Source of the DNA: Escherichia coli
GTDB lineage: Bacteria > Pseudomonadota > Gammaproteobacteria > Enterobacterales > Enterobacteriaceae
Assembly (NCBI RefSeq): GCF_050320075.1
Contig: NZ_CP190018.1
Length of the DNA stretch: 64,000 bases
Direction: 5' to 3' (one strand)
A program made the position numbers and the translations under genes. Every line of letters starts with the position of its first letter. The first letter of the stretch is position 1. Below, piece after piece: positions 327 to 44,885 of this stretch. The notes below the pieces were generated by a model, which had not been told where the DNA came from, did not search any database, and saw only the letters and a list, made by a program, of their open reading frames with translations.

Positions 327-1649
327 ATGGGATTAATGACCTCATTCGAACGTGGAATGGAACGTTTTCTTGTTCCAGTTGCTATCAAGTTAAACTCACA
401 AAAACATGTTGCAGCGGTGAGAGATGGATTCGTTTTTACGTTTCCAATTATCATGGCAAGCTCATTAATTATATTAATTAACTTTGCCATATTATCGCCC
501 GACGGCTTTATTGCCGGGCTGCTGCATCTGAACAGCGTTTTCCCCAACCTTGAAAAAGCACAAGCTATTTTTACTCCGGTAATGAATGGCTCTGTAAATA
601 TCATGTCAATTATGATTGCTTTCCTGGTCGCCAGAAATATGGCGATTAGCTATGAGCAAGATGATCTTTTATGCGGATTAACGGCAATAGGAGCATTTTT
701 TATTGTTTATACGCCATATCAGATGATAGATGGGCAAGCATTCCTGACGACCAAATATCTCGGCGCACAGGGGTTGTTTGTTGCTGTTATCGTTGCATTA
801 ATCACCAGTGAAATATTTTGTCGCTTAGCTCGAAACCCAAAAATCACCATAACGATGCCGGCAGCTGTACCTCCTGCGGTATCGCGTTCATTTAAAGTTT
901 TATTGCCAATATTTTTTGTCATGGTGTTCTTTTCCGCACTTAATTATTGCCTGACACTGATATCCCCGGCAGGATTAAACGATCTCATTTACAAATTAAT
1001 CCAGACGCCGCTCAAACATATGGGAACGAATATCTTTGCGGTAATTATCCTGGGGGCTGTGGGTAATTTCCTGTGGGTGCTGGGGATCCACGGACCTAAT
1101 ACCACCTCGGCAATTCGAGAAACTGTTTTTTCTGAGGCTAATCTGGAGAATCTCTCCTGGGCCGCTCAACACGGCACTACCTGGGGCGCGCCATATCCGA
1201 TTACCTGGACTTCTATTAATGATGCATTCGCCAACTGCGGCGGTTCAGGTATGACGTTGGGGTTATTGTTGGCTATTTTTATCGCGTCTAAGCGTGCGGA
1301 ATACCGTGATCTGGCAAAAATGTCGTTTATCCCCGGTATTTTCAATATCAATGAACCGATAATGTTCGGCCTTCCTATTGTACTTAACCCCATCATGATG
1401 GTGCCGTTTATTCTGGTTCCCATTGTTAACTGTGCCATTGGTTACTTCTTTGTTTCGATGGAAATTATTCCACCGGTTGCTTATGCCGTGCCCTGGACTA
1501 CGCCCGGACCTTTAATTGCTTTCCTCGGAACCGGGGGAAACTGGCTGGCGTTACTGGTGGGTTTTTTATGTTTAGGTGTGGCGACAATGATCTATTTACC
1601 TTTTGTTATTGCCGCCAACAAGGTCAATAACTTAACAACTAACGGATAA
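327..1649 (+). CDS. PTS lactose/cellobiose-family EIIC permease
   Basis: 440-aa polytopic membrane protein from ATG at 327 (ORF track 288..1649); ChbC/CelB-like sequence; located between EIIB and EIIA genes. Confidence 0.85.
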   Translation: MGLMTSFERGMERFLVPVAIKLNSQKHVAAVRDGFVFTFPIIMASSLIILINFAILSPDGFIAGLLHLNSVFPNLEKAQAIFTPVMNGSVNIMSIMIAFLVARNMAISYEQDDLLCGLTAIGAFFIVYTPYQMIDGQAFLTTKYLGAQGLFVAVIVALITSEIFCRLARNPKITITMPAAVPPAVSRSFKVLLPIFFVMVFFSALNYCLTLISPAGLNDLIYKLIQTPLKHMGTNIFAVIILGAVGNFLWVLGIHGPNTTSAIRETVFSEANLENLSWAAQHGTTWGAPYPITWTSINDAFANCGGSGMTLGLLLAIFIASKRAEYRDLAKMSFIPGIFNINEPIMFGLPIVLNPIMMVPFILVPIVNCAIGYFFVSMEIIPPVAYAVPWTTPGPLIAFLGTGGNWLALLVGFLCLGVATMIYLPFVIAANKVNNLTTNG

Positions 1650-1676
1650 TCCCATTTACACAGGAAGGAGATGTTG

Positions 1677-1988
1677 ATGTTTGCAGATGAAGAACTTGTT
1701 ATGGAGTTACTGATCAACGCGGGACAGGCACGTTCTGATGCGATGGAAGCCATACGTTGTGCCGGGCAAAAAGACTGGCAGGGCGCAACTCAGCTAATGG
1801 CCAGTTCGGAATTAGCCTGTCTTCAGGCACATAAGATTCAGACCGCGTTAATTAGTCAGGATGAAGGTTGTGGCAAAATAGAAGTTAATTTAATTCTGGT
1901 TCATGCACAGGATCATTTGATGAATGCAATATTATGCCAGGATTTAGCCAGGGAAATTATTTCATTAAGAAAAGAGCTCCATGCCTGA
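1677..1988 (+). CDS. PTS lactose/cellobiose-family EIIA component
   Basis: About 103-aa helical protein resembling ChbA/CelC; GGAG Shine-Dalgarno at 1667-1670 favours ATG 1677 over ATG 1671. Confidence 0.8.
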   Translation: MFADEELVMELLINAGQARSDAMEAIRCAGQKDWQGATQLMASSELACLQAHKIQTALISQDEGCGKIEVNLILVHAQDHLMNAILCQDLAREIISLRKELHA

Positions 1989-2040
1989 TTTTTTCCTCCA
2001 GTGCGATAGCTGGAGGAAATTATTACACTCTTAAGGATAA

Positions 2041-5181
<3,141 letters not shown>

Positions 5182-5208
5182 GACTTCAGGAAGATATTAC
5201 GGAGATAT

Positions 5209-5230
5209 CAGGCTCTGTGATCAGAGCCTG
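5209..5230. terminator. Perfect 9-bp stem / 4-nt loop hairpin between convergent GH1 gene and marB (likely bidirectional terminator)
   Basis: CAGGCTCTG-TGAT-CAGAGCCTG read directly from sequence; lies between stop codons at 5181 (+) and 5238 (-). Confidence 0.5.
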
Positions 5231-5237
5231 ACAATAA

Positions 5238-5456
5238 CTACATAGCGTGTTGATTATAATAGGGCACGCCGAGCGCATCCGACTTATCACTGCCAGTACC
5301 CATGTGATTTAAATCAAACGGTGGTTGTTCCTGCGATGGGGGAACAACCACGACATTGGCACAGGAAGTAACAACCGGCTGCGTGGTTTGTTCCGCAATG
5401 CCCTGCGTGGAAAAGAGAATAAACGCAGCTGCTATTGCGGATAAAAGTGGTTTCAT
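5238..5456 (-). CDS. marB: Multiple antibiotic resistance protein MarB
   Basis: 72-aa periplasmic small protein with signal peptide; sequence recognised as MarB; immediately downstream of marA. Confidence 0.9.
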   Translation of the reverse strand: MKPLLSAIAAAFILFSTQGIAEQTTQPVVTSCANVVVVPPSQEQPPFDLNHMGTGSDKSDALGVPYYNQHAM

Positions 5457-5487
5457 GATTGCCTCAGTGACGTTGTCACGTTATCAA

Positions 5488-5871
5488 CTAGCTGTTGTAA
5501 TGATTTAATGGATGTAAAAAGCGCGATTCGCCCTGCATATTGGTCATCCGGTATTTATGTGGCGGAACATCAAAGTAATTTTTGAAGGTTCGGGTCAGAG
5601 TTTGTTGCGACTCGAAGCCATATCGTTCTGCCAGATAGAGTATCGGCTCGTTACTTTCCTTCAGCTTTTGCGCGATTTCCGTCATCTTACGGCTGCGGAT
5701 GTATTGGCCTAATGAATGACCGGTTTCTTTTTTAAACATCCGTTGCAGGTGCCATTTAGAGTAACCCGAACGCTCTGACACTTTCTCCAGTGACAGTGGC
5801 GATTCCAGGTTGTCCTCGATCCAGTCCAAAATGCTATGAATGGTAATAGCGTCAGTATTGCGTCTGGACAT
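5488..5871 (-). CDS. marA: AraC/XylS-family transcriptional activator MarA
   Basis: ORF 5488..5877 translates to MarA (…[69 protein letters not shown]…); start chosen at second Met to give the canonical 127 aa, the 129-aa alternative begins at 5877. Confidence 0.9.
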
Positions 5872-5891
5872 CGTCATACCTCTTTTTTTGT

Positions 5892-6326
5892 TTACGGCAG
5901 GACTTTCTTAAGCAAATGCTCAAGTGTTGCCACTTCGTCCGCCGTCAGGTTTTTTGTTAATTCTTGATGCAGGTCCTGGCCAACTAATTGATGGCATTGT
6001 TCACATATTGCCGCGCCGCTGGTGGTAAGTTTTACCAGTACGCCGCGCTTGTCATTCGGGTTCGGCAACCTTTCCACCCAGCCTTTACAGACCAGGCGAT
6101 CCAGCATACGGGTCAGCGCCCCCAGGTCGACCGATAACACTCTTTTCAGTTCAACCGGAGTAATACACGCCGCGCAGCGGATAGAGCAGAGCACCTTAAA
6201 CTGTGCCGCGGTAATATCCAGCGGAGACAGATACTCGTTAAGCAGGCGATCTTTCTTCTGATTAACCATATGGATTAAGCGACCCAATGGAATAATTTCA
6301 TTGAACAGATCGCTGGTACTTTTCAC
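5892..6326 (-). CDS. marR: Transcriptional repressor MarR
   Basis: 144-aa winged-helix repressor recognised as MarR; GTG start at 6324-6326; first gene of marRAB. Confidence 0.92.
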
Positions 6327-6331
6327 ATTAG

Positions 6332-6425
6332 TTGCCCTGGCAAGTAATTAGTTGCAGGGGATAATATTGCCCAGGCAAGTATAAGTCAAATGAATGAATT
6401 GACCGATGCCACGTTTTGCTAAATC
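6332..6425 (-). promoter_or_regulatory. marO operator/promoter region: two MarR palindromes (TTGCCCTGGCAA 6332-6343; TTGCCCAGGCAA 6367-6378) and marbox (6401-6425)
   Basis: Both TTGCC-N2-GGCAA palindromes are visible; the sequence at 6401-6425 is the reverse complement of the canonical marbox GATTTAGCAAAACGTGGCATCGGTC; positioned between divergent marR and marC. Confidence 0.8.
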
Positions 6426-6537
6426 GGTTCAAGTTTTGGTCAATGCGATGCAAGGCTAGCTAAAGAGTGACACTTTATCGTTGTTTACCCCTTATACTTT
6501 TCGCTGATAACCCAGATACACAGGATAACAACCACCA

Positions 6538-7203
6538 ATGTTAGATTTATTTAAAGCAATTGGCCTGGGGCTGGTGGTGTTACTACCGTTAGCTAACCCA
6601 TTAACAACTGTCGCGTTATTTCTTGGCCTGGCAGGCAACATGAACAGTGCCGAACGTAATCGTCAGTCGTTGATGGCCTCGGTGTACGTCTTTGCCATCA
6701 TGATGGTGGCGTATTACGCCGGGCAACTGGTGATGGATACATTTGGCATTTCGATTCCCGGTCTGCGAATTGCAGGCGGCTTAATCGTCGCGTTTATCGG
6801 TTTTCGGATGCTTTTTCCGCAACAGAAAGCGATTGATTCACCGGAGGCGAAAAGCAAGTCGGAAGAGCTGGAAGATGAACCCAGCGCCAATATTGCTTTT
6901 GTACCACTGGCAATGCCAAGTACCGCCGGTCCGGGAACCATTGCAATGATTATTAGCTCGGCGTCCACAGTGCGTCAGAGTTCAACCTTCGCTGATTGGG
7001 TGCTGATGGTTGCGCCGCCGCTGATCTTTTTCCTGGTGGCGGTTATTTTGTGGGGAAGTCTACGCAGCTCTGGCGCAATTATGCGGCTGGTGGGTAAGGG
7101 GGGCATTGAAGCGATCTCCCGTCTGATGGGATTCCTGCTGGTATGTATGGGGGTGCAGTTTATTATTAACGGCATCCTGGAAATCATTAAAACGTACCAC
7201 TAA
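6538..7203 (+). CDS. marC: Inner-membrane protein MarC (UPF0056 family)
   Basis: 221-aa polytopic membrane protein; divergent from marRAB. Confidence 0.88.
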
Positions 7204-7204
7204 A

Positions 7205-7224
7205 AAAGGCCCAAATGGGCCTTT
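7205..7224. terminator. Hairpin terminator between convergent marC and sotB
   Basis: AAAGGCCC-AAAT-GGGCCTTT stem-loop flanked by A-run and T-run, usable from both strands. Confidence 0.65.
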
Positions 7225-7227
7225 CAA

Positions 7228-8418
7228 CTATTGTGTCTGTTCTTCGAGTGTCACTGGCCAGCGGCGGAAAATGATGATTGACCATATTAACGCGGCAAAG
7301 GCAGGCACCGCGCCCACATAACCAATCATCGACATTGACCAGTGCAGACTTACCTGATTACCTACCAACGCACCCGCGCCGATTCCAATATTAAATATCC
7401 CCGAGAATAGCGCCATCGCGACGTCGGTGGCATCTGGTGCCAGCGCCAGCACTTTAACCTGCATACCAAGCCCGATGATCATCATCGCGATCCCCCAGAA
7501 AATACTTAGCACCCCGAGGTGTATTTCACTGTTCGCCGCAGGTAGCAGCAGTGCGAGGCACACCAGCAACAACGCAATCGCCGTACTCACCAACGCAGAC
7601 GCATACTGATTACCCAGTTTCCCGAAAATCACGCTGCCAATAATGCCCGCACCACCGAGTAATAACAGTAATGCCGTGGCAAAGTTGGCGCTGAATCCCG
7701 CAATGTTTTGCACAAAAGGCTCGATATAGCTGTATGCCGTGTAATGGGCGGTGACAACCACCACAGTTAACAAATAAATGCTCATTAATGCCGGGCGGCG
7801 GAACAATAGCGGGAGGCTTTTCAATGAACCGGAATGCTCACTGGGCAGCAAGGGAAGTAACTTAATCAGGCACAAAAGGGTAATAAACGCCCCGATACCA
7901 ATCGCGAAGAAGGTCATTCGCCAGCCAAAATACTGCCCCACAATGCGCCCGAGAGGTAAACCTAATACCATTGCCAGTGCTGTACCGGTGGCAATTAAAC
8001 TCAACGCCTGCGCTCGCTTCCCGGCCGGAGCCATACGGATCGCCAGAGACGCCGTAATCGACCAGAAAATCGCATGTGCAAAAGCCACACCAATGCGACT
8101 GATCACCAGAACGGTAAAGCTCCACGACAAAAACGACAGTACGTGGCTGGCAATAAATACCACAAACAGGCAGATCAGTAATTTGCGCCGTTCAACCTGG
8201 CTGGTCATTAACATAAAAGGCAATGACATTAGCGCTACTACCCATGCGTAAATGGTCAACATAATGCCGACCTGAGCGGTTTGCATGTGAAAACTTTGCG
8301 CAATGTCAGAGAGCAGGCCAACTGGGACAAATTCGGTGGTGTTGAAGATGAAGGCGGCGACTGCCAGCGTAACGACCCGTAGCCACGCCACTTTGCGGGA
8401 AACAGTGTTTGTTGTCAT
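7228..8418 (-). CDS. sotB: MFS sugar efflux transporter SotB (YdeA)
   Basis: 396-aa 12-TM MFS protein recognised as SotB/YdeA; synteny with marC. Confidence 0.85.
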
Positions 8419-8567
8419 AACAGATTATCGGGTGAGTTGCGAAAAAGTGATGAAATGATCTTAAAACGGTTAATGATGTGAATACAATGCATTTGTGATC
8501 TGGATCGCGTTTTCCGTTTCTCTGACGCTGATTCTGTTCCGCGTCAGAGAGTCGGTAACATCACGGT

Positions 8568-9683
8568 TTAATGACGTTCAGGGAGGTCTGGCGTTTTGGC
8601 GGTTGCGGGTATAGGTGATCTGACAGGGGAGCGAGGCCTGTTTTTCACCAGGTCTTCGTGAGTAACTTTTGGCGGCGTTTCATTTTTTACAAAAAGTTTG
8701 AGGGTCCTGCGCGCCATATGTTTGATAATTTTATCATCACTTAATGATGCTGGCATCAACACGTCAATCAAATCACTTTCATTGGGATTCATAAATTGGT
8801 GATAGTGCAATAACATATTGGCGAAAAATAAAAACAAGTCCTGAAAATGTGGAAAATCTTGTTCTGTTAAAAGGGATAAAAAGCAGATGCAGACTTCTGG
8901 TAGTACATGTTTGTTAGAACCTAGTGAATCCATCAGACTTTGCAATAAATCCTCTTTTAATTCGCTGTCCGTTATGTCGAGAATAGCGGTGAGCAAGTTA
9001 GGTTCTTTATTCCCGAACCATCTGTGAACCTCAGAGTTATTCCATAATCGGGGGAGTATGACAAAATTACCGCGAGAGATAAAATTCAGGACAAGCAAAT
9101 CAAACTGGCGTAAGTAATCTGCAGCGGTATGGTGATCCGGATGCAGGGGTTCAATATGTGGCGTATGCGCTCTTTTGATAGGAACGCCAGGGTTGATCAT
9201 TGGAAATTGTTCTATAAAGTCATTCAGAAACAGAAAGAGCACACGCTCGACGCCAGTCTGAAATACGCGCCCCATAGTGACAGGCTTTGGGTTGGGAGCG
9301 CAAAAAATATTAATTTCCCCATCATGGCGGAAATTATCTAAATAAATAGGGCTTAAATTTATTACTACCTGAAATTCAATATCTTCTTTGTGTCTTCCAT
9401 TCCTGGCAGGATAAGTGAGTTTAAATTGAACTTTTTCATTGTATAGCGTGTCGTTACCCCGGAAAGAGGTTCTCTGAATATATGACAAGTTATCAAGGTT
9501 ATTAAATATCTTTTTTGTGGCTGAGCTGATGTTTAAAGACGTACGCCACTCTTCATCACATATTATTGTACTTAGCGCATCAATAAAATCCTTTAAAACT
9601 TCTTTTACCTGAGGTGCAATATTACGAACGGGAAAATCATCAGGAAGAGATATGTAATTGCTGATGCTTACTGGCGTAACCAT
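8568..9683 (-). CDS. yneK: Uncharacterised protein YneK
   Basis: 371-aa ORF at the position expected for yneK between sotB and yneJ. Confidence 0.7.
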   Translation of the reverse strand: MVTPVSISNYISLPDDFPVRNIAPQVKEVLKDFIDALSTIICDEEWRTSLNISSATKKIFNNLDNLSYIQRTSFRGNDTLYNEKVQFKLTYPARNGRHKEDIEFQVVINLSPIYLDNFRHDGEINIFCAPNPKPVTMGRVFQTGVERVLFLFLNDFIEQFPMINPGVPIKRAHTPHIEPLHPDHHTAADYLRQFDLLVLNFISRGNFVILPRLWNNSEVHRWFGNKEPNLLTAILDITDSELKEDLLQSLMDSLGSNKHVLPEVCICFLSLLTEQDFPHFQDLFLFFANMLLHYHQFMNPNESDLIDVLMPASLSDDKIIKHMARRTLKLFVKNETPPKVTHEDLVKNRPRSPVRSPIPATAKTPDLPERH

Positions 9684-9766
9684 ATTTGCCCCATATAGTC
9701 ATAAGTCATCGGAGCATCACTATATAGAGCATATTAGCCGCAAGAACTATCAAAAATAGCTCATTG

Positions 9767-10642
9767 CTAACTCTGTTTTGCCGAGTCAGACACATCCAGT
9801 AGTTGAATAAATGCCTCAAGCGGACGCGTTTTCGCACCGCGACGCCAGACCAGCCAGGTTGTTAACCAACGCCATTGCTCAGCTAACGGCCACGCTTCAA
9901 CCTGGTGATGCCCCGGCATACTTTCCAGCATAGAGCGTGGAATAAGCGCAATGCCTGCTCCTGCGACCACACAGGCCAACATCCCGTGATACGACTCCAT
10001 CTCGTGAATAGTTCCCGGAGCGGCACCGTCAGCATGAAACCAGCTCTCGAAGTGGCGACGATACGAACAATTGGCGCGGAAGGCATAAATGTTACTGCCA
10101 TTAACCTGACTGGCACGGGTTACTGGCGCATGTCCTTGTGGCGTGACAATCATCAGCTCCTCGCGGTACACCGGTATCCCGTCAATGGCAGTATGGTTAA
10201 TGGGCCCATCAATAAACGCCGCATTCAGTTTTCCCTCCAGCACCCCTTCCAGCATAGTGCCGGAAGGGCCGGTGGAAAGTGAAAACTGAATTTTGGGATA
10301 ACGACGGTTAAATTCCGCCAGCGTGGCCGGAATGCGCACTGCTGCGGTGCTTTCCAGCGAACCAAGAGAAAATAAACCTTGCGGCTCATCGCCAGCGACA
10401 ATGCTCCGCGCTTCATCCACTAATGCGAGAATTTGTTGGCTATAGCGTAAAAAGTTATGCCCGGCAGGCGAGAGACGTAAACGCTGATTCTCGCGAATAA
10501 ACAGATCAACCCCCAGTTCTGTTTCCAGCTGGCGTAGACGGGTAGTGAGATTCGACGGCACGCGATGCACTTTTGCTGCAGCCTGGGTAATGCTGCCAGC
10601 TTCGGCAACCGCGTTGAACATCTCCAGTTGGGTCAGATCCAT
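9767..10642 (-). CDS. yneJ: LysR-family transcriptional regulator YneJ
   Basis: N-terminal HTH ([40 protein letters not shown]) and LysR substrate-binding domain; divergent from sad. Confidence 0.82.
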
Positions 10643-10742
10643 AATATTCTCGATTCATGAATAAGTGGCTTAATATTATTCATTTTCAAGCAAGAGTAAA
10701 TCTGCGTATCTTTTTACCATAACTCATAAAGGAGATACCCCG

Positions 10743-12131
10743 ATGACCATTACTCCGGCAACTCATGCAATTTCGATAAATCCTGCCACCGGTGAACAAC
10801 TTTCTGTGCTGCCGTGGGCTGGCGCTGACGATATAGAAAACGCACTTCAGCTGGCGGCAGCAGGCTTTCGCGACTGGCGCGAGACAAATATAGATTATCG
10901 TGCTGAAAAACTGCGTGATATCGGTAAGGCTCTGCGTGTCCGTAGCGAAGAAATGGCGCAAATGATCACCCGTGAAATGGGCAAACCAATCAACCAGGCG
11001 CGCGCTGAAGTGGCGAAATCGGCGAATTTGTGTGACTGGTATGCAGAACATGGTCCGGCAATGCTGAAGGCGGAACCTACGCTGGTGGAAAATCAGCAGG
11101 CAGTTATTGAGTATCGACCGTTGGGGACAATTCTGGCGATTATGCCGTGGAATTTTCCGTTATGGCAGGTGATGCGTGGCGCGGTTCCTATCATTCTTGC
11201 AGGTAACGGCTACTTACTTAAACATGCGCCGAATGTGATGGGCTGTGCACAGCTCATTGCCCAGGTCTTTAAAGATGCGGGTATCCCACAAGGCGTATAT
11301 GGCTGGCTGAATGCCGACAACGACGGCGTCAGTCAGATGATTAAAGACTCGCGCATTGCTGCTGTCACGGTGACCGGAAGTGTTCGTGCGGGAGCGGCTA
11401 TTGGCGCACAGGCTGGAGCGGCACTGAAAAAATGCGTACTGGAACTGGGCGGTTCGGATCCATTTATTGTGCTTAACGATGCCGATCTGGAACTGGCGGT
11501 TAAAGCGGCGGTAGCCGGACGTTATCAGAATACCGGACAGGTTTGTGCAGCGGCAAAACGCTTTATCATCGAAGAGGGAATTGCTTCGGCATTTACCGAA
11601 CGTTTTGTGGCAGCTGCGGCAGCCTTGAAAATGGGCGATCCCCGTGACGAAGAGAACACTCTCGGACCAATGGCTCGTTTTGATTTACGTGATGAGCTGC
11701 ATCATCAGGTGGAGAAAACCCTGGCGCAGGGTGCGCGTTTGTTACTGGGCGGGGAAAAGATGGCTGGGGCAGGTAACTACTATCCGCCAACGGTTCTGGC
11801 GAATGTTACCCCAGAAATGACCGCGTTTCGGGAAGAAATGTTTGGCCCCGTTGCGGCAATCACCATTGCGAAAGATGCAGAACATGCACTGGAACTGGCT
11901 AATAATAGCGAGTTCGGCCTTTCAGCGACCATTTTCACCACCGACGAAACACAGGCCAGACAGATGGCGGCACGTCTGGAATGCGGTGGGGTGTTTATCA
12001 ATGGTTATTGTGCCAGCGACGCGCGAGTGGCCTTTGGTGGCGTGAAAAAGAGTGGCTTTGGTCGTGAGCTTTCCCATTTCGGCTTACACGAATTCTGTAA
12101 TATCCAGACGGTGTGGAAAGACCGGATCTGA
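10743..12131 (+). CDS. sad: NAD+-dependent succinate-semialdehyde dehydrogenase Sad (YneI)
   Basis: 462-aa aldehyde dehydrogenase with catalytic Cys motif (GQVCAAAKR) and ELGG motif; synteny. Confidence 0.88.
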
Positions 12132-35232: not shown

Positions 35233-36585
35233 TTATGGTTTGAGTTTATACTTCTGACCATTAATGATTTTTTTGATTAACTCGAATGCAGCGGGGGAAT
35301 ATTTATGAACACCTTCCTTCCCCGTTTTCACTAGCACATGATAGTTATTATCTGAGGATTTAATATTAAAACCAGTTTCCTTGTGTATTCTTTCTAATAC
35401 TTTATGGACGTAATGCCAAGATCCCATATCAAGTAATTTTGCAAGTTCAGATATGGTGTAGGGATAGCTTGCGTTAAGTGCTTGCCCATTATTTAACTCT
35501 GCAATTCCATAAAGTTTCGCTAACACGTTATCTTGCTCAGCAATGTTCTTAAGCATTTCAAAATCATATGGAAGCTCTTGTTTTACAAGAGATTGAGAGG
35601 CAAATGTATAGGTTCTGGCTAATAGCGCCCTGACTAATTTTGGGTTAACACTGATTTCTGGCGTATTTGACGATAGGGCATCATAAATCCAACCGAAATC
35701 ATTGGCATAGATCACTTTGATTCGGATGCTTTTATTTTCACCAACACCAATCAAAATCTCTTTCTGGTGTGAACCTGTACCTTCACATTCTGGACTAAAG
35801 GAAACCAAATAAATATTCGGAATCAAAGCGTTATTTGGCGCAATTATCTCATCAATATCAGACAGGATGGCTTTAATATTCTCATCATTAATACTATAGC
35901 CAATGAAGAACAACGGATGCTCGACGAAATATGTTAATAGTTTTGCACTGATATACTTTTTACGCTTATAAAACTCAACATAGTCTTCATTTGTTATAAT
36001 GATGCTTTCTGGTTCTTTACTACTGCCGTGAATCTTCATGATTTCACCGTATGTAGTATAGTTAACAGTCACAACATTATGGCCAACTATCGGTTGGTAG
36101 TTATCAAATATCTTTTCAAGCAGATCGTCATAGTTTGTTGTAATAATGGCATGGGGCCTTACTTTTTTTAACTTTTCAATTTCTTCAGTGTACTCCATTG
36201 CTGAAAAATCAACCGAGTCTGAAAGGTTATTCAACAATGTTGCAATCTCATGCTTGATATATATATCTTTAGAGCTTTTTCCATTGAAATACTGTTCAGG
36301 ATAACGAGATGTCCCCACATCCCAAGCCCACTCAGCGTATGACTCAGAAAAATCACTTGCTATCATTGGTTTATTGTCATTTCTTGTTTGACTGTAGTAA
36401 CCATACGGGCGAGTGATTAATGGGCAAGTTTCAGCGAGATACTTTAACAGGTTTTCCCAATCAGGAGCTTTCAAGTAGCGTTGAGATACCCCTGCACCCA
36501 TAAAGAGAATTGGCTGTACCTGTAAACCTTCAAGACATGATTTGATATCTTCAATTATTTCTGTCTGATATTCAGAGAAGTCCAT
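35233..36585 (-). CDS. SIR2-like (SIR2_2 / ThsA-DSR-type) domain protein with uncharacterised C-terminal domain; candidate NAD+-depleting anti-phage effector
   Basis: 450 aa; SIR2_2 hallmarks PILFMGAGVS (res 25-34), IITTNYDDLLE (res 147-157, putative catalytic Asn151), KIHGS (His186), EHPLFFIGYSINDE (res 222-235); C-terminal about 190 aa with no recognised family; gene is markedly AT-rich. Confidence 0.75.
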   Translation of the reverse strand: MDFSEYQTEIIEDIKSCLEGLQVQPILFMGAGVSQRYLKAPDWENLLKYLAETCPLITRPYGYYSQTRNDNKPMIASDFSESYAEWAWDVGTSRYPEQYFNGKSSKDIYIKHEIATLLNNLSDSVDFSAMEYTEEIEKLKKVRPHAIITTNYDDLLEKIFDNYQPIVGHNVVTVNYTTYGEIMKIHGSSKEPESIIITNEDYVEFYKRKKYISAKLLTYFVEHPLFFIGYSINDENIKAILSDIDEIIAPNNALIPNIYLVSFSPECEGTGSHQKEILIGVGENKSIRIKVIYANDFGWIYDALSSNTPEISVNPKLVRALLARTYTFASQSLVKQELPYDFEMLKNIAEQDNVLAKLYGIAELNNGQALNASYPYTISELAKLLDMGSWHYVHKVLERIHKETGFNIKSSDNNYHVLVKTGKEGVHKYSPAAFELIKKIINGQKYKLKP

Positions 36586-36799
36586 ACTTTAGCCTTTAGG
36601 ATGTGAGATGCTGGAGTAGTAAATCGCCGCGGAGCGGTTCGGGGTTCTGTGACACCCGAATTTTACCTCGGTTTCCTTTGTATATAATATCATTGAAGTT
36701 ATTTGCATTTCTCAGAAATCTTCTCTGGCTTTGATTGCTATAGCCGAAAGATAGCGCACACTTCGCCGTTGGTCAGTTAGTACGAGGTTTCCGCCAAGT

Positions 36800-37835
36800 T
36801 CACCTTTTACCAAAGATGGCCTCAGAGCTTCCCTGAAGCTTTATCATGGTTTCAAGTAGGTCATCTTCGTTCAGTGAGCGCTGAGATTTGTTGATGCTAG
36901 GCGCGTGCCGTCTGCGGGAAGGCTCATCACCAGAACAAGGTAACGATAGTGAGCGATTATTGTCCCGTTTTCTCTGGACCTGACGGGCAACATCCAACAC
37001 ATGGCCAAGTCTCTTGTTATCTACAATGGCGACGGGCTCAACCTCAGAAAGCCGGTCATAGGTGGAGTAGGGTAGCAGCACGCCATTTAGTCGCAGCTCC
37101 TTATGTCCGTCAGGATAATGCCAGACATCAATATACTTGCCGATGGCTCTTCGACTGTACTCGTTGTCCTCAATCAGATAGAGCATTTTATCGTATTGTA
37201 CAGTCAGATTTTTTGATACCCGGCGAGGCTCTCGCCAGGTAAATTCTGCATCAAGGTCATCGTCTAATGCCAGCGGCCGGTACGCGTTAAAATCATGCAA
37301 GGGTTCTTTGGCAAAGCGCCGGTTATAATCCGCCATGTATTCTTCTGCAAATGCATTGGCCGCTTCTATTGTACAGATCCCCTTAAGCCTGAGCTCCTTA
37401 ACGAGTCGGTCCTGAAGTGTCAAATGAGCACGTTCAACGCGGCCTTTTGCCTGGCTGGTTTCAGCACACAAAGGAGTAATATTAAGGCAGCGCATGGCCC
37501 TGGCAAACTGGGTATCGCCGAGACCGGTGGTGGCGTGCTTATTATTGACTCTGAATACGCTGGCTTTATCGCTGTAGAGGATCATCGGTTTACCGTATTC
37601 AGTGGTGGTCGCAGCCATCAATTTGTATCAGCTCGCCAGTACAAGGACGCCGGTAACGAGGCTGATGAATTTTCGGTGCGCGTTGTCTGCGGGGGATCCA
37701 GAGTCCCGCGTTTATCATGAGACGTCGGATGGTTTCCTTTCCAAGGACCAGACCGTGAACTTCCTCCAGCTTTTCCCGCGCCAGCGTGGGGCCAAAATCA
37801 CGGTAGTGCTCCCGGATTATACTGAGTGCCTCCAA
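36800..37835 (-). mobile_element. Remnant IS element: DDE (integrase-core) transposase gene disrupted by a frameshift
   Basis: Two overlapping minus-strand ORFs (37599..37835 N-terminal HTH part ending …IQIDGCDHH; 36800..37621 catalytic part …ILYSDKASVF…AETSQAKGRVERAHLTLQ); family not confidently assigned (IS481/ISNCY-like); IS ends not identified. Confidence 0.6.
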
Positions 37836-38198
37836 TGAGCCACAAATAGAACATTAGCATTGAGCCTCTATAATTTTGGTGCGCATAATGTATATTATGT
37901 TAAATGTGGTGGGTTTGTTCTTAAGTTCATGTGTTCCGCTCTTTCAGTAGCTTAACTGATGAATCAGTCAGCAGCTCTTGCCGTGCAAGCTACGCGGCGG
38001 TTCGTACCAGATTGGCCACCTCCATCTCCTGGTTCGCTTTCCCCTCCCCCCGGTAAACCTCACCCAACGTTAATTAATGATGTCAGTATGTGGGCGCTAT
38101 CCTTGTATGTAAAATCCACTGACGATTACGCCCATCTGTGAAAAAAAACTCACAATGCCATTCGATGCATCTCCATACTGAACGAGGCGTTATCGTCT

Positions 38199-39098
38199 TT
38201 ATCGCCCCGTAGTGGATATCAGAAAATCAATCAGGGCCTTCACTCTTTTCGTTTTACCCGCGTTTTTGGGGTAATAGAGATACACTGGCGGGTAGGTTTT
38301 CCAGTATCTCTCCATCACCGGAATAAAGCGCTCCCTGTCCGGCTGTAACTGCCAGACAGGCTCAAACAAGCGCCCAATTCCCAGCCCGTTACGGATCCCG
38401 TCTGCCATAACGTCAATATCGTTGCTGATTAACTGCCCCGGCATCTCAACGGTCAACTGCTCACCGCGATCGTTCAGGAGCAGCGGAAGGATGCGGTTGT
38501 TGGTGATAAAACGGTAACCAATCAGCTGGTGATGACAGAGATCTGCCGGCACTTCAGGCGTTCCATGTCGGGAGAGATACGCTGAGGATGCATATAATCC
38601 TTCACGAAACGGTTTCATTAACGGTCGGGCCACCACCCCTCCCTCAAGAATATCGCCAAAACGGATCCCCAGATCAAAACGCTCTTTGATGATATTCACG
38701 GTACCGTCGTAGACCGAAATTTCTAACTGTATACCCGGATATTGCTGACAGAATTCTGCCATCGCAGGCTTAAGAATTAACAGGTAGGCAAAACGCGAGA
38801 GCGTAATTCGCACCATCCCAGAGGGCTCCTGATGCTGGTCGCGAATGCTTTCAAGTGAGTTTTCCAGCGACTCCACCGCCGCAGCGGTCTGTTCCAGCAA
38901 TAATTGACCGGTTTCCGTCAGCTCTATACGGCGGGTCGTACGCACAAAAAGCGGATGGCCGATATACTCTTCCAGCAGCTTTAGTGCATTGCTGACGGAG
39001 GGAGGCGTAATTTCCAGTTTCCTTGCGGCTGCCGAAATATTGCCCTCCCGCGCAATGCTCTGGAAGATGCGAATCTGGTTATAAAGAGCGTTATTCAT
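38199..39098 (-). CDS. LysR-family transcriptional regulator
   Basis: 299-aa protein; N-terminal HTH (IFQSIAREGNISAAARKLEITPPSVSNALKLLE); divergent from the oxidoreductase cluster. Confidence 0.85.
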   Translation of the reverse strand: MNNALYNQIRIFQSIAREGNISAAARKLEITPPSVSNALKLLEEYIGHPLFVRTTRRIELTETGQLLLEQTAAAVESLENSLESIRDQHQEPSGMVRITLSRFAYLLILKPAMAEFCQQYPGIQLEISVYDGTVNIIKERFDLGIRFGDILEGGVVARPLMKPFREGLYASSAYLSRHGTPEVPADLCHHQLIGYRFITNNRILPLLLNDRGEQLTVEMPGQLISNDIDVMADGIRNGLGIGRLFEPVWQLQPDRERFIPVMERYWKTYPPVYLYYPKNAGKTKRVKALIDFLISTTGR

Positions 39099-39233
39099 AA
39101 TGTTTTCCTAAGCAATTCTCGCCTGATTATTAAGTACAGTCTAAAAATGCTTAAGTCAATGACCCTCTAATCTTCCTGAAATACGCCTCTTATACTTTAG
39201 TCTCTTTCTACTACGACCTGAGTTCAGGAGACT

Positions 39234-39545
39234 ATGATGCGAATTTTATGTCTGGATATCCCTGCCCCTGGAGCATCGCTGGAGAAATATGCTCCGCACC
39301 TCAACGCTGAAGCGCTGCACGCCTGGGGATTGTATAAATCAGGCTTCATCCGCGACATCTACTTCCGTCAGGACAGACCTGGCGTCGCTATTTTTCTTGA
39401 ATGTGACTCTGTCGATGAAGCGATGAACGTTATGGCCGAATTCCCGTTGGCAAAAGCAGGCTTACTAAGCTTCGAGTGTATACCGCTTGGCTCCTTTATT
39501 AACTGGGAAAATCTCTTCGCCGATGAATTTAAAAATAAAGAGTGA
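39234..39545 (+). CDS. Muconolactone isomerase-like small protein (Dabb/YciI-like fold)
   Basis: 103-aa protein with pattern similar to CatC-type muconolactone delta-isomerases; family assignment tentative. Confidence 0.45.
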   Translation: MMRILCLDIPAPGASLEKYAPHLNAEALHAWGLYKSGFIRDIYFRQDRPGVAIFLECDSVDEAMNVMAEFPLAKAGLLSFECIPLGSFINWENLFADEFKNKE

Positions 39546-39553
39546 GGACCGAT

Positions 39554-40243
39554 ATGAAACCTGCATATAAACCAGTGCTATGTGTCGTTTCCAGCCATCC
39601 GATTAAAGGCGCATCCGGTGTACCAACCGGTTTTTTCCTGGCCGAGCTGACTCATCCGCTGAAAGTACTGGAAGATGCCGGAATAAAAACAACAATAGCC
39701 AGTATTCGCGGGGGGCAGCCACCGGTGGATGGATTTGACCTCAGCGACCCTGTTAACGCCTGGTACTGGAACGAAACCGATTTTCAGCAGCGCCTGGCAA
39801 CAACACCTGCGTTATCCGAGCTGAAAGGTGCCGATTACAGCGCAGTTTTCTTTGCAGGTGGTCATGGGACCATGTGGGATTTCCGTGATAATCAGGATGC
39901 CCAGCGTATTATCCGCGAAGTGTATGAAAGTGATGGGATTGTCTCAGCCGTCTGCCACGGGCCTGCGGCATTGGTTGACGCAAAACTCAGTAGCGGCGAA
40001 TACCTGATAAAAGGGAAAAATGTGGCGGCCTTTACCAACAAGGAAGAGGAAGAAGTTCACACAACAGATGTGGTTCCCTTCCTGCTTGAAACCGCACTTC
40101 GCGAGCATGGTGCGCTTTATCATGAAGCTCCAAACTGGTCTGAAAACGTGGTTACCGACGATCGCCTTATCACGGGGCAGAATCCCGCTTCAGCACATGG
40201 GGTTGGTGTGGCGCTGTTAAATGCACTCCGCCGGACAGCTTAA
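39554..40243 (+). CDS. DJ-1/PfpI-family (class I glutamine amidotransferase-like) protein
   Basis: About 229-aa protein with nucleophile-elbow context (SAVCHGPAAL); ORF track 39542..40243, ATG 39554 more likely. Confidence 0.7.
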   Translation: MKPAYKPVLCVVSSHPIKGASGVPTGFFLAELTHPLKVLEDAGIKTTIASIRGGQPPVDGFDLSDPVNAWYWNETDFQQRLATTPALSELKGADYSAVFFAGGHGTMWDFRDNQDAQRIIREVYESDGIVSAVCHGPAALVDAKLSSGEYLIKGKNVAAFTNKEEEEVHTTDVVPFLLETALREHGALYHEAPNWSENVVTDDRLITGQNPASAHGVGVALLNALRRTA

Positions 40244-40316
40244 TTAATTCATCGTTACTCACCTTACTTGGCCGGTTTAAGTCAGCCACGATCCGGCCTT
40301 TTTTCAGGAGCTGAAT

Positions 40317-41264
40317 ATGAAAACACTACCTCCAGTCGCACTAGGTACATGGTCCTGGGGCACAGGCTTTGCCGGCGGCGACACCGTCTTTGGTAATCAT
40401 CTTTCTGATACTCAGATGGCAGAAGTGTTCACTGCGGCCATGAGTAAGGGCCTCAATCTCTGGGATACCGCAGCAGTATATGGTATGGGGAGTTCCGAGA
40501 CTGCGCTGGGAGCATTAGTCCGTCAGTTTCCCCGCGAGAACATAATTTTATCCACCAAATTCACGCCGCAGATTGCGGACAAGCAGTCTGCGCAGCCTGT
40601 CAGCGATATGCTTGAGGCCAGCCTTGGGCGCCTGGGCGTGGACGCGATTGATATCTACTGGATCCATAATCCCCTCGACGTCGAAAAATGGACACCAGGA
40701 CTGATCCCACTTTTACAAAGCGGTAAGGTAAAACGCGTAGGTGTTTCCAACCACAATCTGGCACAAATCAGACGCGCCAATGAAATCCTTAACGCTTCCG
40801 GTTATTCCCTCAGTGCAGTACAAAATCACTACAGCCTGCTCTATCGCGCTTCTGAAGAGGCCGGGATCCTTGATTATTGCCGACAAAATAACATCACGTT
40901 CTTTGCTTACATGGTCCTGGAGCAAGGCGCGCTCAGTGGTCGTTATGATTCAAATCATCCCATGCCTGCCGGGAGTGGCCGGGCCGAAAGTTATAACGCA
41001 GTACTGCCGCAGATAGAAAGACTAACCGCCGCCATGAAAAAAATGGGAGCCGAAAGGAATGCCAGCGTGGCACAGATAGCCATCGCATGGGCTATTGCGA
41101 AAGGTACCCTTCCCCTCGTTGGTGCGACTAAAGTCCATCACGTTCTGGACGCCGCCTGCGCTTCAGACATCCAGTTACGCGATGAGGAAATCATCCTGCT
41201 GGAACAACTCGCCGCAGAGACCAGAGTGGATACACGAGGCGCCTGGGAAAAACCGATGGTGTAA
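40317..41264 (+). CDS. Aldo/keto reductase family oxidoreductase
   Basis: 315-aa protein with AKR features (LWDTAAVYG, VGVSNH). Confidence 0.8.
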   Translation: MKTLPPVALGTWSWGTGFAGGDTVFGNHLSDTQMAEVFTAAMSKGLNLWDTAAVYGMGSSETALGALVRQFPRENIILSTKFTPQIADKQSAQPVSDMLEASLGRLGVDAIDIYWIHNPLDVEKWTPGLIPLLQSGKVKRVGVSNHNLAQIRRANEILNASGYSLSAVQNHYSLLYRASEEAGILDYCRQNNITFFAYMVLEQGALSGRYDSNHPMPAGSGRAESYNAVLPQIERLTAAMKKMGAERNASVAQIAIAWAIAKGTLPLVGATKVHHVLDAACASDIQLRDEEIILLEQLAAETRVDTRGAWEKPMV

Positions 41265-41366
41265 AGCCCGTCCGGAACAGACTGTCATGAATGACACACA
41301 CGAACGGGCTGTTCCGGGTGATTCTAATCTGTATCACTTTTACTGCTTTGTATGAATGGTGAGAAT

Positions 41367-42044
41367 ATGAAAATCATTTGCCTCGAAGAACATTATCTCG
41401 ACAGCGAGTTAGGGCGAGCGTGTATGCCTGTTGCGCTTGAGCAGGCACCTTTCCTTGGCGACAGGGGGAAAACCGTCGCTGATGGTCATAATCCTGACCG
41501 ACTCCCTGCTTTCCCGCTTTAATAAACTGAATGTGCCACTCTATCTTCATCCCGGGTTACCGCTTAAAAGCGTACAGCAGGCCTACTTCACGGGCTTCAG
41601 CGCAGAGGTCAACGCCAGGCTTTCTATGTTTGCCTGGGGCTGGCATCACGAAGCGGGGATCCATTTGTTGCGGCTGATGTTATCGGGCGCATTTGATAAA
41701 TATCCCAACCTGCAGGTAATCAGTGGCCACTGGGGGGAGATGTTACCCTTCTGGCTCCAGCGTCTTGATGACAGCCTACCACTGGCTGCAACGGGTCTGT
41801 CACGCACGCTAACGAGAACCTTCCAGGAACACGTTTACGTTACCCCGTCATATGCTAACACTGCCGCACTTCCAGTTTATCTACGCGTTAATGGGTGCTG
41901 AAAGGATCCTGTTCTCCGTCGGTTATCCCTATCAGACCCCTGGACGGTGTAAAAACCTTTATAGACAGTCTGCCCGTCAACAAGGCTGAAAAAGAGGCCA
42001 TCGCGTTTCGCAATGCAGAACGTTTACTGGGCATCACGGTTTAG
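41367..42044 (+). pseudogene. Amidohydrolase-2 (ACMSD-like metal-dependent hydrolase) gene remnant with frameshifts
   Basis: N-terminal MKIICLEEHYLD… in one frame, central part (ORF 41431..41901) in another, C-terminal …FSVGYPYQ…NAERLLGITV in a third; total length too short for the family. Confidence 0.55.
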
Positions 42045-42194
42045 TTCACCGTTTCATGATGACTGAGCACATTGTGATCAGCCGACAATTATTAGTTTTT
42101 GCCTAAAAGTGAATGAGCCTTTACTGCTCTAAAAAAATAATGTTGTCACTCTATACTGGATTTAATATTCACCAAAGATGTTTAACTGATTGAA

Positions 42195-42767
42195 ATGAAA
42201 AATATCCTTGTTATTTCAGGTCATCCTGAGCTTACCCATTCCGTCGCCAATGCCACTATTCTTGATGAAGTGGAGACCGCCCTTCCCGATGTTGAGATTC
42301 GTCGTCTGGACAGGCTCTATCCGGATGGCAAATTCAACATCGCGGCGGAGCAGAAAAGCCTGCTCAGGGCCGATGTGATTGTCTGGCAGTTCCCTTTTTC
42401 CTGGTATGGGCTGCCAGGATTAATGAAAAAATGGCTGGACGAGGTCTTTGTTCACGGCTTCGCGCATGGCTCAACGGCGAAACTGGGCGGTAAAAAGCTG
42501 ATCCTCTCCTTTACAACGGGAGCGCCAGAGGAGCTCTATACCGTCGACAGTTTCTTTGGCCATACCATTGAAGAGTATCTTATTCCGTTCGAAACCACGG
42601 CAAGGCTGTGCAATCTTGAGCTGCTGGCGCCGGTTTATACCTGCGGTATCAGCTATGCCGACCGGGATGCCGACAAAATCGCGCAGCAAAAAACGCTTGC
42701 CCGGGAACACGCTTCAAGGCTTGTCGAACTGCTCAATTCCGTCGTGAATAATCCAGAGGGAGAATAA
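42195..42767 (+). CDS. Flavodoxin-like NAD(P)H:quinone oxidoreductase (KefF/MdaB/general stress protein 14-like)
   Basis: 190-aa protein; N-terminal MKNILVISGHP flavodoxin-like-fold signature. Confidence 0.7.
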   Translation: MKNILVISGHPELTHSVANATILDEVETALPDVEIRRLDRLYPDGKFNIAAEQKSLLRADVIVWQFPFSWYGLPGLMKKWLDEVFVHGFAHGSTAKLGGKKLILSFTTGAPEELYTVDSFFGHTIEEYLIPFETTARLCNLELLAPVYTCGISYADRDADKIAQQKTLAREHASRLVELLNSVVNNPEGE

Positions 42768-42769
42768 CA

Positions 42770-43789
42770 ATGCAGTATACCCGGCTCGGTAAAAGTGACT
42801 TACTTGTTTCCCGCATCTGCATGGGATGCATGGGGTTTGGCGATCCGTCGACGGGTCAGCATAGCTGGACGCTGGACGAAACAGCAAGCCGCGACATCAT
42901 TCGCTATGGCCTTGAAAAGGGCATCAACTTTTACGATACCGCTATAGCCTACCAGAATGGCTCCAGTGAGCGATACGTTGGCCGGGCATTACGGGAGATG
43001 GCGAAACGCGATGATATCGTCCTGGCCACCAAGTTTCTGCCGCGAACCCCCGCACAAATTGCCGGAGGGATCAGCGGAAAAGAGGCAATCGCTCAATCCC
43101 TTGACCAGAGCCTGAAGAATCTGGGGATGGACTATATCGACCTCTACATCTACCACATCTGGGATTACAACACGCCCATTATCGACGTGCTTGAAGCGTT
43201 ACATACCGCTGTTACTGCTGGCAAAGTACGATCTGTTGGTATTTCAAACTGCTATGCCTGGCAGCTGGCGAAGGCGAACGCCCTTGCTGAACGCGAAGGG
43301 CTGATGCCCTTTGTTTCCGTACAGAGCCACTACAATCTAATTATGCGCGAAGATGAACGGGAGCTCTTCGGCCTGTGCACTGAGGATAATATCGCAATGA
43401 CCCCCTATAGCGCGCTGGCCAGCGGCCGCCTCTCTCGTAAAGAAGGCTATACACGGCGAGCCACAGAGGATGACTATGCGCGTGGAAAATATGACAGCAC
43501 GGCTGAACAGGATCGCAGCATTATTGAGCGTGTAGCCGAACTGGCCGAACGCCATCTGGTGTCAATGACGGAAATATCTCTCGCTTGGCTGCTGACAAAA
43601 GTCACATCACCTGTCGTAGGGGCTACAAAAAAAGCTCATGTCGATGGCGCGGTAAACGCAGTAAATCTTCAACTAAGTCCGGAGGAAATTCAGTTTCTGG
43701 AAGAAACCTACCAGCCGCATGTTCTGACGGGGGTCATGGCGCAAAATACGCCGCAAACGAAAGATGTTAAGCAGGTCTGGATGCGATAG
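42770..43789 (+). CDS. Aldo/keto reductase family oxidoreductase
   Basis: 339-aa AKR (GINFYDTAIAYQNG, VGISN); start immediately follows the upstream stop. Confidence 0.8.
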   Translation: MQYTRLGKSDLLVSRICMGCMGFGDPSTGQHSWTLDETASRDIIRYGLEKGINFYDTAIAYQNGSSERYVGRALREMAKRDDIVLATKFLPRTPAQIAGGISGKEAIAQSLDQSLKNLGMDYIDLYIYHIWDYNTPIIDVLEALHTAVTAGKVRSVGISNCYAWQLAKANALAEREGLMPFVSVQSHYNLIMREDERELFGLCTEDNIAMTPYSALASGRLSRKEGYTRRATEDDYARGKYDSTAEQDRSIIERVAELAERHLVSMTEISLAWLLTKVTSPVVGATKKAHVDGAVNAVNLQLSPEEIQFLEETYQPHVLTGVMAQNTPQTKDVKQVWMR

Positions 43790-43904
43790 CCCTTATTCAC
43801 TTTTCCTCCTCTCGTCTTTGAGAGCGCCAGTAGCGGTCGGTTACGTTCTTACCAGCACCAGTTGATCGAACGTCTTAAACAGTAACGTCAGTAAAAAGAT
43901 CATC

Positions 43905-44630
43905 GTGAAAAAGACTTTTATGCTTTTAATTTGCATGCAAATAAGCAGCCCTGTCTTTGCAACAAAACCGGACGCGCCGAATAAGCCGGAGATGAATATC
44001 TTCGAGCTCGGCATCAGACCCGATCGGGACAACGACTTTGCAGACGTGGCCAGACAGACGATTTCCGCTTCGGTTGATCATGAAGCAGGTACACTGGCGA
44101 TGTATGCCCTGCAACGCAGCGACAATTCAGGTCAGGCATTCATGTTCGAACTCTATGAAAATGAGCGTGCTTATCGCAAACATCTCAATGCCGCCCCATA
44201 CAAAGCATTCGCTGCTCGTGCACCTGACATTATTGACAGGAAGAAGAAAATTACCCTGGAGCCACAGTTTCTGGGCGACAAACACATCATACCGAATGAA
44301 CGAACTATCAATAATCTGGTGATCGTCGAAGTAAAGCCTGAATTTCAGAGCGAATTTAGAAACATCGTCCTTCCTGAAATGGTCGAGTCGCTCAAAGTAG
44401 AGAAAGGCGTGTTAGCCATGTATGCCGGTACAGATTCAGAGACTCCAAAACGCTGGTATTTCTATGAGATTTACGCCAGTGAGGAGGATTATCAACTGCA
44501 CCGACAAACGCTGCACTTCCTGGATTACCTCAGGCAAACGGCGCATATGAGCGCCAGGAAGGACGCAATCCCGGTAAAACCGGTATTTCTTCGTAACAAA
44601 GGCGGAATCAAACAGGAGCCGCAACGTTGA
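43905..44630 (+). CDS. Putative secreted protein with tandem ABM (antibiotic-biosynthesis-monooxygenase-like) domains
   Basis: 241-aa ORF with N-terminal hydrophobic signal-like segment and two ABM-like halves (AMYALQR…FELYENERAY; AMYAGT…YEIYASEEDY); start uncertain. Confidence 0.5.
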   Translation: MKKTFMLLICMQISSPVFATKPDAPNKPEMNIFELGIRPDRDNDFADVARQTISASVDHEAGTLAMYALQRSDNSGQAFMFELYENERAYRKHLNAAPYKAFAARAPDIIDRKKKITLEPQFLGDKHIIPNERTINNLVIVEVKPEFQSEFRNIVLPEMVESLKVEKGVLAMYAGTDSETPKRWYFYEIYASEEDYQLHRQTLHFLDYLRQTAHMSARKDAIPVKPVFLRNKGGIKQEPQR

Positions 44631-44645
44631 CCAGTAAGGATTAAC

Positions 44646-44885
44646 ATGAAAAGCGTACTTGCAGCAGCGGCTATGTCGCTTGTTATTTCTGATTTTGCTA
44701 ATGCTGAGGAAACAAGAGGTAAAGCTATGATGAAAATAGAACCGTCAGCGATTTCGGAAGCTGATATTCGTTCCGTCTCACCGGCTCTCGCGCGCTTTGG
44801 TCGCGAAGCTATTACTGAAGATCTGTGGACACGCGACGCCCTCTCACCGAGGGATCGTAGAGTAGTTAAACTTACTGTTATTTAA
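44646..44885 (+). pseudogene. Truncated carboxymuconolactone decarboxylase (AhpD-like) family fragment
   Basis: 79-aa ORF with CMD-like N-terminal motif (…ALSPRDRRVV…) ending abruptly; sits at the island/fimbrial junction. Confidence 0.4.

Follow-up and report, generated by a model that had tools for sequence, protein, structure and literature searches.

A 79-codon reading frame beside the F9 fimbrial operon of Escherichia coli, very probably a gene remnant left by a lineage-specific deletion

What lies at the locus?

The window, by which we mean the whole 64,000-nucleotide stretch of Escherichia coli DNA analysed here, includes the interval between hipBA and ydeP, the site of the F9 (Fml/Yde) chaperone-usher fimbrial operon. 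Between hipA and that operon sits an island of LysR-linked redox genes: a divergent LysR regulator on the minus strand and then, all on the plus strand, genes for a hypothetical protein, a DJ-1/PfpI protein, an aldo/keto reductase, a split amidohydrolase, a flavodoxin-like NAD(P)H oxidoreductase, a further aldo/keto reductase, a tandem ABM protein and a tandem carboxymuconolactone decarboxylase (CMD) family protein, the last of which is truncated in the window. The features on which our argument turns are these.

37906..44860, plus strand (LysR gene minus): retained part of the ~7.8-kb hipA-F9 island (window 37873-44860 aligns to 1574-8561 of the intact-locus sequence L002; RefSeq)
43905..44630, plus strand: tandem ABM / putative quinol monooxygenase gene, its stop 15 bp before the CMD start (Pfam ABM twice; RefSeq)
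44646..44860, plus strand: retained 5' part of the CMD gene (codons 1-71 and 2 nt), coding for a putative Sec signal peptide and the first ~15-25 residues of domain 1 (identity to L002 up to 8561; RefSeq annotation)
44860..44861, no strand: deletion junction, blunt, with 0 bp of microhomology (BLAST coordinates, breakpoint sequences)
44861..44885, plus strand: foreign tail of the reading frame (R VVKLTVI stop), from the spacer between the F9 major-subunit and chaperone genes (translation against the full-length protein; contiguous with the spacer in 3,600+ genomes)
44861..45052, plus strand: surviving last 192 bp of that native spacer, AT-rich (aligns to L002 10987-11178 and L003 6001-6192)
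45053..45763, plus strand: F9 (Fml) periplasmic chaperone gene, intact (PapD_N and PapD_C domains; RefSeq WP_001551119.1)
47484..48251, minus strand: IS1, replacing 1,821 bp of the F9 operon (RefSeq and locus comparison)

The object of our interest is a reading frame of 79 codons with an ATG start at 44646-44885 on the plus strand, preceded, 8 nt 5' of the ATG, by the putative ribosome-binding site AAGGA. From its end it is 158 bp to the start of the longest chaperone reading frame (45044) and 167 bp to the chaperone start given by RefSeq (45053), which agrees with the figure of about 160 bp in an earlier reading made from the sequence only. RefSeq (PGAP) labels the frame an incomplete carboxymuconolactone decarboxylase family protein, "missing C-terminus", and a pseudogene. 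Since only 15 bp separate the ABM stop from the CMD start, the two genes are probably co-transcribed. Elsewhere in the window, the 6-phospho-beta-glucosidase gene of a PTS/porin cluster (3742-5181) is likewise a RefSeq pseudogene, with an internal stop.

How was the reading frame cut?

Taken alone, the 79-residue peptide matches no family in Pfam or NCBIfam at E<=0.01, so its CMD identity was not demonstrable from those residues and was established by comparing its DNA with that of intact genes. That comparison gives a collinear, near-identical 5' match at the orthologous position: bases 44646-44860 align without a gap to the start of an 804-bp gene of the CMD family in intact relatives, and 43800-44860 is 99.6% identical at the nucleotide level to 7501-8561 of L002 (strain ECO_2_R), with the same flanking genes. 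Residues 1-71 are identical to the 267-residue protein WP_000843779.1, while the last eight codons (RVVKLTVI, then the stop) are F9 spacer sequence and have nothing to do with CMD. The sequence-only reading was therefore right to call the frame a truncated CMD-family gene, but it had the frame ending after the first conserved motif; the cut in fact falls inside that motif, L-S-P-R-D-R-S-V-V-T-V, between R71 and S72, and the foreign tail happens to encode R-V-V and so mimics the missing residues, which explains why the motif was taken as complete. It had also set the breakpoint at 44870-44890 and proposed alignment with intact CMD genes and F9 loci; the alignment places the break at 44860/44861, 10-30 bp further left, and finds homologues of 267 residues, so 79 is not the normal length of this protein.

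The junction itself is sharp. When 44300-45300 was run by megablast against 5,426 complete E. coli genomes, the query up to 44860 matched CMD-bearing genomes, the query from 44861 onwards matched the region upstream of the F9 chaperone in ~3,600 genomes, and two genomes spanned both. At the same point the GC content drops from 0.505 (44661-44860) to 0.365 (44861-45060). Against the intact locus of L002 the break corresponds to 8561/10987, so that 2,425 bp are missing and window 44861-46000 resumes as L002 10987-12126; against L010 (NY1601) it corresponds to 11561/13985, with 2,423 bp missing. The left breakpoint reads ...GGGATCGTAG/TGTGGTGACC... and the right one ...AATAAACAAC/AGTAGTTAAAC..., with 0 bp of in-register homology between them. 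A search for direct and inverted repeats at the breakpoints returned just an out-of-register 5-mer, GTAGT, from which the observed junction would not follow, and a single inverted 6-mer, neither of them more than expected by chance, and there is no IS sequence at 44861; the junction thus carries the signature of neither a microhomology-mediated nor an IS-mediated deletion.

What has gone is considerable. In L002 coordinates, the missing segment comprises the last 589 bp of the CMD gene (8562-9150), the right end of the island with its native edge (9151-9381), a yneL-like AraC/HTH (helix-turn-helix) pseudogene (9553-9819) and the F9 major-subunit gene (10253-10816), followed by 170 bp of the spacer 5' of the chaperone. 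The f9 promoter has gone as well: transcription was mapped to a start 251 nt 5' of the major-subunit start codon, from an H-NS-bound promoter, TAGTCG-N18-CATAAT (Wurpel et al. 2014, PMC3966885), and this exact motif, at L002 9966-9995, belongs to the stretch that was deleted, so that the window has no copy of it. Nor does any fragment of that stretch turn up elsewhere in the 64-kb window. Because the missing DNA completes a reading frame and holds core genes that are contiguous in island-free genomes, parsimony argues strongly for a deletion here and not for an insertion in the other genomes.

The junction shows no sign of a terminator or a non-coding RNA. An Rfam scan of 43800-45300 gave no match; promoter and terminator scans, run on the window and on the intact locus, scored no more sites than they did in shuffled controls, with no terminator-like site between the frame and the chaperone gene; and the spacer folds with z = -0.89, with no stable structure over the same interval.

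We therefore regard the 79-codon frame as a pseudogene remnant produced when one E. coli lineage lost 2,425 bp of its chromosome in a single deletion, a reading to which we give a probability of about 0.93. In the ancestor of this lineage a ~7.8-kb island lay between hipA and the yneL-like pseudogene, with a 267-residue, secreted tandem-CMD protein encoded by its last gene. A blunt, non-homologous deletion then joined CMD codon 71/72 to a point 192 bp 5' of the F9 chaperone start. Lost with it was everything from the CMD 3' end and the native island edge, through the yneL-like remnant, the H-NS-bound f9 promoter and the F9 major-subunit gene, to 170 bp of spacer. The resulting chimeric frame runs eight codons into the spacer before meeting a stop, the F9 operon is left without its own promoter and major pilin, and, in a sub-lineage that includes the window, a later IS1-associated deletion of 1.8 kb destroyed the usher and minor-subunit genes. 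The comparisons show the junction, what was deleted, the direction of the change, its spread among lineages and the order of the two events; the mechanism of the deletion, the loss of function and the signal peptide are inferred.

What has become of the F9 operon?

The window's F9 operon lacks the full set of six structural genes with the mapped promoter. Promoter and major subunit are deleted, and a second lesion, associated with IS1, has truncated the usher, removed ydeS and left ydeR partial. Here IS1 (47484-48251, with flanks 45805-47484 and 48252-48462) has replaced the 3' end of the usher gene, ydeS and the 5' end of ydeR, and the lack of a target duplication suggests that the lesion is an IS1-adjacent deletion. 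The order of the two events can be read from the contigs L007 and L008, in which the junction is present, IS1 is absent and the usher sequence continues intact, with L007 encoding a complete 883-residue usher, both minor subunits and the adhesin; since these IS1-free contigs share the junction, the 2.4-kb deletion came first and IS1 later, in a sub-lineage.

This raises the idea that the first deletion was adaptive, a promoter swap that placed the chaperone, usher, minor subunits and YdeQ/FmlH-type adhesin under read-through from the LysR-linked island operon, giving a rod-less tip adhesin with new regulation. We offer this as conjecture and consider it a long shot. All the genes concerned share one orientation, and with the scans described above giving neither a terminator-like site nor a stable structure between the short frame and the chaperone gene, read-through from the island operon into that gene is possible on the sequence; moreover, carriers free of IS1 (a contig from SRR22402980 is one example) keep the chaperone, usher, minor subunits and adhesin, and L007 shows the usher, both minor subunits and the adhesin. 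However, the window's own sub-lineage went on to lose its usher to IS1, which speaks against selection for keeping the system, and the island looks to be decaying, with a split amidohydrolase here and, in other lineages, a nonsense CMD allele and a split aldo/keto reductase. With the H-NS-silenced promoter and the rod subunit gone, the tip adhesin would, were the idea true, be expressed under a new signal, which would be something other than simple decay.

Where does the island really end?

The deletion reading treats 44860/44861 as a scar inside the locus, and it might be asked whether the breakpoint is instead the native right integration boundary, with the CMD gene truncated as the island arrived. 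Island-type DNA (GC 0.50) does meet F9 DNA (GC 0.37) exactly at the junction. Yet the comparison of L002, L003 and the window refutes a native boundary at this point, and we consider it very unlikely. The island-bearing L002 and the island-free L003 (E5) are collinear except for L002 1607-9381, a segment of 7,775 bp in which neither an integrase nor a transposase was found, and which is flanked by a 7-bp direct repeat, GTTAAAT, at L002 1600-1606 and 9382-9388; the empty site has a single copy (L003 4394-4400), and the left copy in the window is at ~37899-37905. Genomes with the same island have a complete CMD gene and 231 bp more island DNA beyond its stop, up to a GTTAAAT that matches the empty-site copy, and the native right edge lies at L002 9381/9382, 820 bp further right than the left breakpoint. 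As the point of divergence between L002 and L003 falls inside the missing 2,425 bp, the junction is a later deletion scar, and neither the divergence point nor the direct repeat is found at 44860/44861. Besides, core genes have gone from the window too, the F9 major subunit as well as the yneL-like pseudogene, and the CMD gene is present at >=80% of its length in 465 of the 5,426 complete E. coli genomes against two complete genomes with the junction. The proposal in the sequence-only reading, that the island and the fimbrial locus meet here, accordingly stands for this genome, in which island-derived and F9 DNA are indeed joined, but not as a statement about the native right boundary, which is some 820 bp further right in intact genomes.

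As for where the island came from, orthologues of 267 residues with at least 90% identity to the CMD protein occur in Enterobacter asburiae, E. roggenkampii, E. cloacae, E. huaxiensis and Klebsiella aerogenes, a hint that the island may be shared with, or derived from, Enterobacter. Two side observations belong to the same neighbourhood. The island's amidohydrolase (Amidohydro_2) is split into two or three short reading frames at window 41352-42044 (L001 9068-9602), and likewise in ECO_2_R, so that even islands called 'intact' seem to carry it as a pseudogene. About 25 bp to the left of the left GTTAAAT, an additional block of 2,762 bp (window 35111-37872) carries a SIR2-family gene and a frameshifted ISNCY transposase remnant; the block is absent from ECO_2_R and NY1601, Ec-U3 lacks its 36382-37538, and the SIR2 gene beside hipBA could be a defence-type insertion.

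Could the short frame be a gene in its own right?

A further possibility is that 79 residues is the normal length of a genuine small protein. The frame has a plausible ribosome-binding site and a signal-peptide-like N-terminus (MKSVLAAAAMSLVISDFANA/EE, a putative Sec signal peptide shared with the intact CMD protein), and its exact product was found on 176 public contigs by exact-sequence look-up. Those contigs are nonetheless consistent with a single clone, the sampled ones being 100% identical over 8-10 kb; the peptide alone has no family match, its homologues are of 267-269 residues and its last eight codons come from an intergenic spacer. On the strength of the full-length homologues and the spacer-derived tail we have rejected this alternative, which strikes us as extremely improbable.

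The intact gene makes plain how much has been lost. Its 804 bp encode 267 residues with two copies of PF02627 (129.7 bits against a Pfam cut-off of 23), and the solved structure 4g9q in the PDB, a '4-carboxymuconolactone decarboxylase' of 269 residues, aligns over residues 25-259, the alignment with the full-length protein starting at residue 25. In NCBIfam the full-length parent scores 116.4 bits against TIGR02425, the PcaC equivalog, below the cut-off of 155.7, so only a family-level name is warranted and not PcaC function. Compared with WP_000843779.1 and 4g9q, the short frame has in common residues 1-71 (of WP_000843779.1), its place as the last gene of the hipA-F9 island, 15 bp past the ABM gene, and the signal-like N-terminus; it differs in lacking residues 72-267, which are nearly all of the first CMD domain and all of the second, and in ending on eight unrelated residues. 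With orthologues so much longer and a C-terminus made of F9 spacer, it has the features of a truncation pseudogene. Its product, as predicted, would be a signal peptide with ~50 mature residues and no complete CMD domain, and is very probably non-functional, a small secreted peptide with a residual or new role being no more than formally conceivable.

A second, independent lesion of the CMD gene occurs in other E. coli lineages, in which a nonsense allele splits it into 66 and ~190 residues; this allele is on 17 contigs (L011 3001-3804, L012 and L013 among them). L011-L013 keep both the F9 major subunit and the yneL-like pseudogene, and the adjacent aldo/keto reductase is also split in L011 and L012. 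A nonsense allele at an otherwise intact locus fits relaxed selection on the island.

How is the junction distributed?

The deletion is confined, as far as our sample goes, to one lineage. Positions 1-57,300 of the window are 100% identical to the chromosome of E. coli YZLc1-3 (NZ_CP123240.1, from position 2,575,051), and among the 5,426 complete genomes the junction occurs in two, YZLc1-3 (chicken, China) and Ec-U3 (human urine, Burkina Faso), which are 100% identical to each other over 26 kb save for two indels in Ec-U3. The junction 60-mer is identical in Ec-U3 and in the four contigs that we retrieved (L006-L009), and the latter match the window at 100% wherever they align. That the junction is an assembly artefact, for which nothing specific speaks beyond the IS1 and other rearrangements nearby, is a practically negligible prospect and has been rejected, as the identical junction recurs in two complete genomes that differ in country and host of origin, and in independent NCBI, ENA and Logan assemblies. 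Ec-U3 lacks window 41041-41909 (869 bp, the 3' end of an aldo/keto reductase gene and the 5' end of the amidohydrolase) and is otherwise 100% identical; this gap reflects either one more deletion in the clone or a difference in assembly.

Why does it matter?

The f9 operon, between hipBA and ydeP, is known to suffer deletions, truncations and IS elements in ~40% of genomes, and its immediate 5' region to be variable, with insertions and deletions (Wurpel et al. 2014, PMC3966885). The window resembles the disrupted operons described there in its locus and in showing both kinds of lesion, deletion and IS, but differs from them in that an island gene is fused to the chaperone spacer, an arrangement that 2 of the 5,426 complete genomes show. 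In the literature that we searched, this 2,425-bp deletion was not found.

A comparable case is that of E. coli K-12, in which the ydeT/yneL state of the F9 locus reflects a likewise lineage-specific deletion, one that takes away the major-subunit end of the operon beside yneL. The deletion in K-12 has different end points; the K-12 locus is not known to carry the island and has lost the chaperone and the 5' end of the usher, whereas the chaperone is intact in the window.

We are dealing, then, with a known variable and decay-prone region, and with a pseudogene that RefSeq already records as such; the junction is private to its lineage and otherwise ordinary. At the level of annotation, the correction is that the junction is a secondary deletion scar and that the true island boundary is the one with the 7-bp direct repeat. 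The exact junction sequence, scored along with IS1 as present or absent, could serve to mark the clone, a lineage recovered from poultry and human urine. For the biology of E. coli, the locus adds one more route by which F9 fimbriae decay, through loss of the promoter and the major pilin and then through IS1.
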